64,000 nt of DNA, from assembly GCF_003334765.1 (NCBI RefSeq), contig NZ_QOWT01000013.1. One strand, 5' to 3'. The notes under the pieces are model-generated. The model saw only the letters and a list, made by a program, of their open reading frames with translations, was not told where the DNA came from and did not search any database. Below are positions 59,359-60,826 of this stretch, one piece after another; position 1 is the stretch's first letter; each line of letters begins with the position of its first letter. The position numbers were made by a program, and so were the translations under genes. The stretch is from Escherichia coli (GTDB lineage Bacteria; Pseudomonadota; Gammaproteobacteria; Enterobacterales; Enterobacteriaceae).

Positions 59359-59576
59359 AAATAACCTTTAGCATCTTTTATAGAGTCTGGTGTTCAGTCT
59401 ATTCCTGTTGCGTAAATCGCGCTATGCAGAATCTTCATCTTTTCAGGTACAAACGCCTTTATTGCTACATTTTTATAACATACACCGCGTAATGCCATCG
59501 ACCAGAAAGGTGGCATATGGTGTGATCGGGGTTCAATAAATTGCGAAACAAGGTATACTCCAGCAGTTCCTGAAGA

Positions 59577-59594
59577 TGTTTATTGTACTAAACG
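59577..59594 (+). promoter_or_regulatory. NadR-box-like palindrome in pncB leader
   Basis: TGTTTA-TTGTAC-TAAACG inverted repeat (TGTTTA-N6-TAAACA-like) downstream of a GTTCAA-17 nt-TATACT promoter candidate (59531-59559). Confidence 0.55.
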
Positions 59595-59623
59595 CTCCTG
59601 TACGAGGACGCTACTGCGCACCT

Positions 59624-60826
59624 ATGACACAATTCGCTTCTCCTGTTCTGCACTCGTTGCTGGATACAGATGCTTATAAGTTGCATATGCAGCAAGCCGT
59701 GTTTCATCACTATTACGATGTGCATGTCGCGGCGGAGTTTCGTTGCCGAGGTGACGATCTGCTGGGTATTTATGCCGATGCTATTCGTGAACAGGTTCAG
59801 GCGATGCAGCACCTGCGCCTGCAGGATGATGAATATCAGTGGCTTTCTGCCCTGCCTTTCTTTAAGGCCGACTATCTTAACTGGTTACGCGAGTTACGCT
59901 TTAACCCGGAACAAGTCACCGTGTCCAACGATAATGGCAAGCTGGATATTCGTTTAAGCGGCCCGTGGCGTGAAGTCATCCTCTGGGAAGTTCCTTTGCT
60001 GGCGGTTATCAGTGAAATGGTACATCGCTATCGCTCACCGCAGGCCGACGTTGCGCAAGCCCTCGACACGCTGGAAAGCAAATTAGTCGACTTCTCGGCG
60101 TTAACCGCCGGTCTTGATATGTCGCGCTTCCATCTGATGGATTTTGGCACCCGTCGCCGTTTTTCTCGCGAAGTACAAGAAACCATCGTTAAGCGTCTGC
60201 AACAGGAATCCTGGTTTGTGGGCACCAGCAACTACGATCTGGCGCGTCGGCTTTCCCTCACGCCGATGGGAACACAGGCACACGAATGGTTCCAGGCACA
60301 TCAGCAAATCAGCCCGGATCTAGCCAACAGCCAGCGAGCTGCACTTGCTGCCTGGCTGGAAGAGTATCCCGACCAACTTGGCATTGCATTAACCGACTGC
60401 ATCACTATGGATGCTTTCCTGCGTGATTTCGGTGTCGAGTTCGCTAGTCGGTATCAGGGCCTGCGTCATGACTCTGGCGACCCGGTTGAATGGGGTGAAA
60501 AAGCCATTGCACATTATGAAAAGCTGGGAATTGATCCACAGAGTAAAACGCTGGTTTTCTCTGACAATCTGGATTTACGCAAAGCGGTTGAGCTATACCG
60601 CCACTTCTCTTCCCGCGTGCAATTAAGTTTTGGTATTGGGACTCGCCTGACCTGCGATATCCCCCAGGTAAAACCCCTGAATATTGTCATTAAGTTGGTA
60701 GAGTGTAACGGTAAACCGGTGGCGAAACTTTCTGACAGCCCTGGCAAAACTATCTGCCATGATAAAGCGTTTGTTCGGGCGCTGCGCAAAGCGTTCGACC
60801 TTCCGCATATTAAAAAAGCCAGTTAA
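59624..60826 (+). CDS. pncB: PncB nicotinate phosphoribosyltransferase
   Basis: ORF-track frame 59576..60826 trimmed to Met-17 (400 aa); [19 protein letters not shown] recognised. Confidence 0.9.

Follow-up and report, generated by a model that had tools for sequence, protein, structure and literature searches.

The pncB control region of Escherichia coli: a mapped promoter, a downstream NadR-type operator and a start codon with a distant Shine–Dalgarno sequence

The segment described here is part of a 64-kb window, i.e. the whole stretch of Escherichia coli DNA that was analysed (64,000 nt), and holds the 265-bp intergenic region between pepN on the minus strand and pncB on the plus strand. 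From 59350 to 59700 the window does not differ in a single base from E. coli K-12 MG1655. Window position w corresponds to 1049980 − w in NC_000913.3, NC_000913.2 coordinates being 777 lower, and this mapping was checked base for base. The pepN–pncB region was found in all complete E. coli genomes searched (5426 of 5426). The product of pncB is nicotinate phosphoribosyltransferase (NAPRTase), an identity backed by NAPRTase structures in the PDB. For comparative purposes 80–82 pncB loci were used, consisting of Enterobacteriaceae from a genome scan with Yersinia added via its PDB sequence; the protein search for PncB relatives returned close relatives only among its matches. The features of the segment are collected in Table 1; all elements named in the original prediction lie at the coordinates it gave. 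With high confidence, they are assigned to the control region of pncB, comprising a promoter that directs transcription from G59566, a NadR operator, and the start codon AUG 59624 with a distant Shine–Dalgarno (SD) sequence.

Table 1. Features of the pepN–pncB segment, in window coordinates.
Feature	Position	Strand	Basis
−35 candidate GTTCAA	59531..59536	+	sequence; poor match
−10 hexamer TATACT	59554..59559	+	sequence, conservation, TSS 7 nt downstream
pncB transcription start site (G)	59566..59566	+	Kim et al. 2012 TSS table; 58-nt leader
Divergent TSS 59574 with −10 TACAAT	59574..59587	−	Kim 2012 and Cappable-seq
Upstream in-frame ATG, +11 to +13 of mRNA	59576..59578	+	ORF-track artefact
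NadR-type operator TGTTTA-TTGTAC-TAAACG	59577..59594	.	1 mismatch to consensus; only such match in window; 55/82 loci
Conserved block: leader 3′ half and first ~12 codons	59590..59659	+	column identity
SD-like GAGGA	59604..59608	+	anti-SD duplex scan; 15 nt before AUG
Possible weak hairpin AGG.A.CGC-UACU-GCG.CA.CCU	59605..59623	+	local MFE −6.0 kcal/mol in E. coli
pncB CDS, 400 codons and stop	59624..60826	+	RefSeq, conservation, periodicity, homologue N-termini

Two start codons have been proposed for the pncB frame. RefSeq/PGAP begins the gene at 59624 (400 aa), whereas the mechanical ORF list opens it at 59576 (416 aa), at an ATG that overlaps the palindrome, as the original prediction had pointed out. 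This upstream triplet is made up of the base preceding the operator (A) and the operator's first two bases (TG). The recognised start at 59624 is borne out by conservation, codon periodicity and homologue N-termini as well as by annotation. ATG is present at this position in 82 of 82 loci, and the three-base periodicity of substitutions starts exactly there, with none upstream. When the 416-aa ORF was compared with the PDB (phmmer), the Yersinia NAPRTase chain 3os4 aligned with its residue 1 on ORF residue 17, the Met at 59624; the PDB homologues begin at this Met or a few residues away from it, and none of them aligns to the 16-residue extension (ORF residues 1–16). We conclude that AUG 59624 is the translation start of pncB, following a 58-nt leader. 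Vinitsky et al. 1991 are said to have sequenced the N-terminus of the Salmonella NAPRTase as TQFASP..., with the Met removed. Among data on initiation, INRI-seq gave 0 CPM at the pncB start in five replicates with the template present in the pool, and Ribo-RET likewise gave 0, in assays that detect ~70% and ~18% of annotated starts, respectively (missing ~30% and ~82%). The INRI-seq template began at −30, so its zero covers 59624 and not 59576. There was no mention of pncB in the TRAINSPOTTER N-terminomics supplements and no match in the Salmonella riboproteogenomics supplements.

Transcription of pncB starts at a single site in the map of Kim et al. 2012 (PMC3415461), which was obtained by terminator-exonuclease-enriched modified 5′ RACE. 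The site, 989637(−) in NC_000913.2, is listed with 180 reads and a 5′UTR of 58 nt and equals G59566 of the window; the upstream sequence given for it ends ...TATACTCCAGCAG, also quoted ...GGTATACTCCAGCAG. It derives from this one data set, the Cappable-seq rows covered being those of the plus strand. TATACT agrees with TATAAT in 5 of 6 positions, shows a mean column identity of 0.99 across 81 sequences, and is also found in Yersinia. Its distance of 7 nt from the mapped start falls within the 5–9 nt typical of a −10 element, which confirms TATACT as the −10 of the pncB promoter.

The original prediction had proposed GTTCAA-17 nt-TATACT as promoter. Its coordinates and the −10 hold, but the −35 is weaker than that wording implied. 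GTTCAA matches TTGACA in 2 of 6 positions, and an alternative TTCAAT (59532–59537, 16-nt spacer) reaches 3 of 6; the promoter has no −35 near TTGACA at the 16–18 nt spacing of sigma-70 promoters, nor does it carry an extended −10 TG. A consensus scan called 0 promoters here because of this poor −35. The TTCAATAA block at the −35 candidate is kept in most relatives, Yersinia included. A CRP site, TGTGATCGGGGTTCA (59521–59535), was considered and rejected, its right half-site matching in 2 of 5 positions and its centre at −37.5 being neither a class I nor a class II position.

The palindrome following the promoter, TGTTTATTGTACTAAACG, carries 11 of the 12 specified bases of the NadR consensus TGTTTA-N6-TAAACA, an 18-bp inverted repeat (PMC2330245). 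It is the sole match with ≤1 mismatch in the 64-kb window, for which 0.17 are expected by chance, or ~0.0007 when scaled to the 265-bp pepN–pncB intergenic region. Given a transcription start at 59566, the operator becomes part of the pncB transcript, occupying +12 to +29 (centre +20.5). This places it in the initially transcribed region, where the RNA polymerase footprint ends downstream, and within the leader, 29 nt upstream of the ATG. Thereby its position relative to the transcript, left provisional in the original prediction, is fixed.

Of 82 enterobacterial pncB loci, 55 carry the box. In each of these the TAAACG half-site retains its mismatch, and none of the 12 half-site bases varies. 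The stretch between the −10 and the box (7–20 nt) varies freely in sequence and length among loci, with the box starting at +2 in four Enterobacter cloacae-complex sequences (owing to a 10-bp deletion), at +10 to +13 in 48, and at +15 in three. The distance from box to ATG is fixed at 28–29 nt. Among the 82 loci, the box is absent from Klebsiella, Raoultella, Trabulsiella, Atlantibacter, Mangrovibacter, Franconibacter, Siccibacter and Yersinia; roughly one in three of the genera sampled lack it, which fits the description of pncB as a lineage-variable member of the NadR regulon (PMC5343134). The gene has been counted among those repressed by NadR (PMC12421817). Taken together, the consensus match, the location in the regulatory region of a NAD salvage gene and the conservation at orthologous loci support the assignment of the palindrome, anticipated from the sequence, as a NadR-type operator between promoter and start codon. 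The E. coli pncB gene and its NadR-like box were reportedly described by Wubbolts et al. 1990.

The pncB box is the same 18-bp inverted repeat as the NadR operators of E. coli and Salmonella at nadB and nadA-pnuC, and departs from the consensus by the TAAACG mismatch fixed in every box-bearing lineage. At nadA the box TGTTTAGCATATAAAACA lies upstream, at −54 to −37 of the TSS of Kim 2012, whereas that of pncB lies downstream. E. coli nadB has a perfect box, TGTTTAGTAAATTAAACA, downstream of its likely −10 and 6 nt before the ATG; an operator downstream of the promoter is thus not unusual for NadR. The nadB box abuts the ATG, while the pncB box is 29 nt away from it. Promoter-proximal downstream operators are represented by lac O1, at about +1 to +21, and by PurR roadblock sites. 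In these systems, as at pncB, the repressor site occupies initially transcribed DNA and partly coincides with the downstream end of the RNA polymerase footprint.

NAD-bound NadR at 59577–59594 would be expected to repress pncB. One possibility is a clash with RNA polymerase in the open complex or the initial transcribing complex, the footprint of which extends to about +20; another is a block of promoter escape or of early elongation. The start of the operator ranges from +2 to +15 without helical phase, which argues for simple occlusion or a roadblock by NadR as the probable mode of action, and not for a phased contact or a DNA loop.

The pncB ATG was described in the original prediction as having a weak and distant SD, and the anti-SD scan agrees. 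GAGG(A) is the only stretch complementary to the anti-SD in the whole leader (−5.9 kcal/mol), and none lies closer to the AUG. The spacing to AUG 59624 is 15 nt after GAGGA, or 16 nt after GAGG, as compared to a dominant SD–start spacing of 6 nt in E. coli (PMC3415461). The element is thus complementary to 16S rRNA but lies outside the 5–10 nt spacing of a canonical SD. All 60 distinct leaders that were aligned carry GAGGA unchanged, and the distance from AGGA to ATG is 14 or 15 nt in 81 of 81 sequences (14 nt in Yersinia).

Conservation extends into the sequence around the SD. Leader positions 59595–59623 show a mean identity of 0.91 with 9 of 29 columns invariant, as compared to 0.69 for third and 0.95 for first codon positions. 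Within the gene, third positions of codons 2–12 reach 0.84 versus 0.64 for codons 13–50 (p = 0.0015). The conservation of the leader holds in lineages without a NadR box (Klebsiella, Raoultella, Atlantibacter and Yersinia). Judging from these alignments, conservation of the SD spacing and of the leader around it reaches from Yersinia to Escherichia. The long SD–AUG spacing appears to be a selected feature, probably one that keeps initiation inefficient or conditional.

A putative hairpin of the form (A)GG.A.YGC-loop-GCR.(CA).CC(U) can be drawn with the same topology in the eight lineages tested, at −1.8 to −6.0 kcal/mol. It is possible that this structure either pairs the SD with the CC(U) before the AUG or, via its inner stem alone, shortens the SD–AUG spacer. 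The pairing potential is kept in 94–96% of cells, with 0–1 double changes, which does not exceed the shuffles, in sequences that are very similar to one another. RNAalifold of the leaders gave −3.5 kcal/mol with no compensatory pairs and did not predict the hairpin at 59605–59623. A Rfam 15 E-value scan of 59350–59800, covering both strands, gave no match at E ≤ 10. Compared with shuffled sequence, the initiation region shows no excess of structure (z = +1.68 for +1 to +95), and the folding of −30 to +33 gave a mean z of +0.42 over 57 sequences.

Long-spacer ribosome binding sites bridged by a hairpin are known from phage T4 genes 38 and 25. Like these, pncB combines an SD more than 13 nt from the AUG with a stem-loop that can be drawn in the spacer, and the E. 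coli inner stem CGC-UACU-GCG would leave an effective SD spacing of about 5 nt. Unlike in the T4 genes, this stem has 3 bp and is of marginal stability (−1.3 to −3.4 kcal/mol if the SD is kept unpaired; 0 in Atlantibacter), a fuller hairpin would hide the SD instead of presenting it, and covariation lends no support.

Several other candidates for control elements in the leader were tried and rejected. The sequence around GUACGAGGACGC partially resembles the SELEX consensus for CsrA, but places GGA in a stem and not in a loop, and no literature on pncB and CsrA was found. An upstream ORF or translational coupling from the xTG at the start of the box was dismissed, as the ORF ends in an ATGA over the start codon only in leaders 1 nt shorter; in E. 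coli, Citrobacter and Salmonella the xTG is instead in frame with pncB. The ATG in GAGGATG, as the start of an upstream ORF, does not occur in E. coli, and the frame it opens differs from lineage to lineage. An upstream anti-SD hairpin (UCCU/AGGA) is part of the E. coli MFE structure, but substitutions in relatives break the pairing without compensation. For targeting of the leader by sRNA or Hfq no literature was found, the only match being a ProQ-associated fragment inside the CDS.

A second transcription start was identified on the opposite strand. The start at window position 59574(−), directed towards pepN, equals 989629(+) in NC_000913.2. Two independent data sets record it, Kim 2012 with 5 reads and Cappable-seq with a score of 39.4 versus 59.9 for the main pepN TSS (window 59465). 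Its −10, TACAAT, is the reverse complement of 59582–59587 and lies inside the NadR operator, which covers −3 to −20 of this divergent promoter. The 5′ ends of the pncB and 59574(−) transcripts overlap by 9 nt. Starting at 59574(−), the pepN leader would be 216 nt long.

Four alternative readings bear on these assignments, two of which we consider highly improbable. Translation from AUG 59576 would yield a 416-residue PncB with the operator inside the coding sequence. The frame is indeed open from there, the AUG is included in the transcript at +11, a few database entries have longer forms of 414–433 aa (nearly all clusters are annotated as 400 aa), and the initiation data gave no positive signal at 59624. 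However, only 10 nt of mRNA precede this AUG, and the scan of the whole leader revealed no SD before it. ATG occupies the position in 5 of 81 loci, confined to Escherichia and Intestinirhabdus, with TTG in a further 29; an in-frame start codon is missing in 47 of 81, in most of them because a 1-nt leader indel (CACC[T]ATG) shifts the frame. Such indels are tolerated upstream of 59624, where codon periodicity is lacking, the extension matches no homologue, and RefSeq uses 59624. In line with the original prediction, which would have been overturned by initiation at 59576, no evidence for such initiation was found; AUG 59576 is an accidental in-frame triplet and an artefact of the ORF track. It is equally far-fetched that the palindrome is a chance AT-rich inverted repeat or a leader RNA hairpin instead of a protein operator. 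At least one match with ≤1 mismatch occurred in 17 of 100 shuffled windows, and a weak A/U stem is possible in the centroid structure. Still, the palindrome precedes a known NadR regulon gene, 55 loci agree at all 12 of its half-site positions but differ in the flanks, the leader folds no better than shuffled sequence, and the repeat is followed by no U-tract on its 3′ side, with no terminator called.

The other two readings would add to NadR control of pncB and are unlikely, albeit clearly less so. The 3′ half of the leader and the early CDS (59590–59659) might constitute an uncharacterised post-transcriptional element beside NadR control, taking the form either of a hairpin, which would bridge the spacer or sequester the SD, or of a binding site for a trans-acting factor; this would not conflict with the best explanation. 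Such an element would account for a leader that is more conserved than synonymous sites, also where the NadR box is missing, for the suppressed synonymous variation in codons 2–12, for an SD spacing fixed at 14–15 nt as opposed to the usual ~6 nt, for the same local hairpin in all lineages tested, and for the missing in-vitro initiation peak from a template that was in the pool. It is called into question by the lack of a Rfam match, by RNAalifold (no compensatory pairs at −3.5 kcal/mol) and by covariation no higher than in shuffles. If there is any difference, shuffled sequence folds slightly better than the initiation region. The literature offered no connection to an sRNA or to CsrA, and part of the conservation may be simply inherited, the sequences being closely related. 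Alternatively, the operator could be bifunctional and also repress the divergent pepN-directed promoter, with the overlapping promoters competing for RNA polymerase. We regard this as a doubtful proposition. The presence of the 59574(−) start in two data sets, at about two-thirds of the Cappable-seq score of the main pepN TSS, the coverage of −3 to −20 by the box and the 9-nt overlap of the 5′ ends speak for it. On the other hand, the divergent promoter has no recognisable −35 and just 5 reads in Kim 2012, TACAAT may be a by-product of the AT-rich operator, and no report of NadR control of pepN was found.

In summary, the preferred reading is a pncB promoter firing at G59566 into a leader that carries a NadR-type operator and a distant SD ahead of AUG 59624. 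The literature or standard annotation already covers the control of pncB by NadR as well as its operator consensus, TSS and start codon. The two points that the original prediction wanted confirmed, the true start and the position of the operator relative to the transcript, are answerable from public data and sequence comparison. As framed in the original prediction, the region therefore holds nothing new, and its practical value is that of a check on a longest-ORF start call, the one at 59576 being shown wrong, with reasons. The only points that might repay experiment are the conserved long-spacer leader and the divergent TSS at the operator. The invariant 3′ half of the leader with the first ~12 codons may, with low probability, be a NadR-independent translational control element; separately, and just as tentatively, the operator may occlude the divergent −10. 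The deeply conserved and oddly spaced pncB ribosome binding site, without a cell-free initiation peak, and the second TSS, firing from the operator towards pepN, could be of modest interest to researchers of non-canonical initiation or to engineers of NAD/NMN production strains. If true, occlusion of the pepN-directed −10 by the operator would link NAD status to the expression of aminopeptidase N.

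Across 80 Enterobacteriaceae genomes and in Yersinia, conservation of window 59590-59659, which covers the leader of pncB in its 3′ half plus about 12 initial codons, far exceeds that of synonymous sites, also in lineages lacking the NadR box. In the same set, the spacing between the SD and the AUG of pncB is constant at 14-15 nt. The conserved block gave no match in Rfam, and a search for covariation within it found none.

Upstream of this block, four Enterobacter cloacae complex loci share a deletion between the -10 element and the NadR box, which shifts the start of the operator from +12 to +2 while the remaining leader is unchanged. 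Around the SD, most genera read GAGGATG (many loci, e.g. positions 1486-1488 of the relative's pncB locus L030) whereas E. coli reads GAGGACG (window equivalent 59608-59610). The former yields an ATG 5 codons upstream of the pncB start, which is in frame in leaders shorter by 1 nt, and this upstream ATG probably gives rise to over-long annotations. An example of an over-long annotation is provided by K. pneumoniae KPN_00967, annotated with a length of 1239 nt as compared to 1203 nt (PMC3415461, supplementary orthologue table). An analogous case is found at asnS (window 60950-62395), for which the ORF list starts at GTG 60950 (481 aa) whereas RefSeq gives 466 aa; the longer frame is a longest-ORF overextension of the same kind as for pncB.

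Features in the pncB region of the window, in related loci and at MG1655 nadB
Feature	Location	Position or strand	Remark
Block ATGGTGTGATCGGGGTTCAATAAAT	window 59514-59553	upstream of pncB -10	conserved Yersinia to Escherichia
-10 TACAAT of pepN-directed TSS	window 59582-59587	minus strand	embedded in NadR operator
10-bp deletion	L023, L024, L025, L029	about 55-25 nt upstream of ATG at 1501	pncB loci of Enterobacter cloacae complex
NadR boxes of nadB	L086 523-540 and 597-614	MG1655 nadB upstream

In Klebsiella, Raoultella and Trabulsiella the ATGGTGTGATCGGGGTTCAATAAAT block is replaced by another sequence with a better -35 element (GGGACA). The block contains a TGTGA half-site. A CRP site was considered here and rejected, being poor as such a site and centred at -37.5. 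At nadB of MG1655, a perfect NadR box lies 6 nt upstream of the ATG, the usual place of an SD, and a second box with 2 mismatches is located about 74 nt farther upstream.

The cell-free initiation screen INRI-seq (PMC9825163, Table S2) used a pncB oligo spanning -30 to +150 (window 59594-59773). Although this template was present in the pool, each of the five replicates recorded 0 CPM at the start of pncB, and the Ribo-RET signal of this start was likewise 0. As pepN and aspC were also zero, the lack of an initiation signal at pncB is no more than suggestive. From within the pncB CDS, a stable RNA fragment, pncB-decRNA, is reported to be excised and to be enriched in ProQ pulldowns (Dar & Sorek 2018, PMC6156199).

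The coding sequence itself differs from MG1655 at window 59896, where codon 91 (59894-59896) reads TTA (Leu) instead of TTC (Phe). All 83 orthologous loci fetched encode Phe at this position, as TTC or TTT, and an exact match to window 59866-59926 was found in none of 5426 complete E. coli genomes (best identity 98.4%). Judged from these sequences, Leu91 is a missense change unique to the window, at a residue that is otherwise invariant; it may stem from mutation in the strain, from a sequencing error or from a change that was introduced.

Finally, two independent TSS data sets place a start toward pepN at the identical coordinate within the pncB leader, window 59574 on the minus strand. The resulting transcript overlaps the 5′ end of pncB by 9 nt, and the pepN leader from this TSS would be 216 nt.
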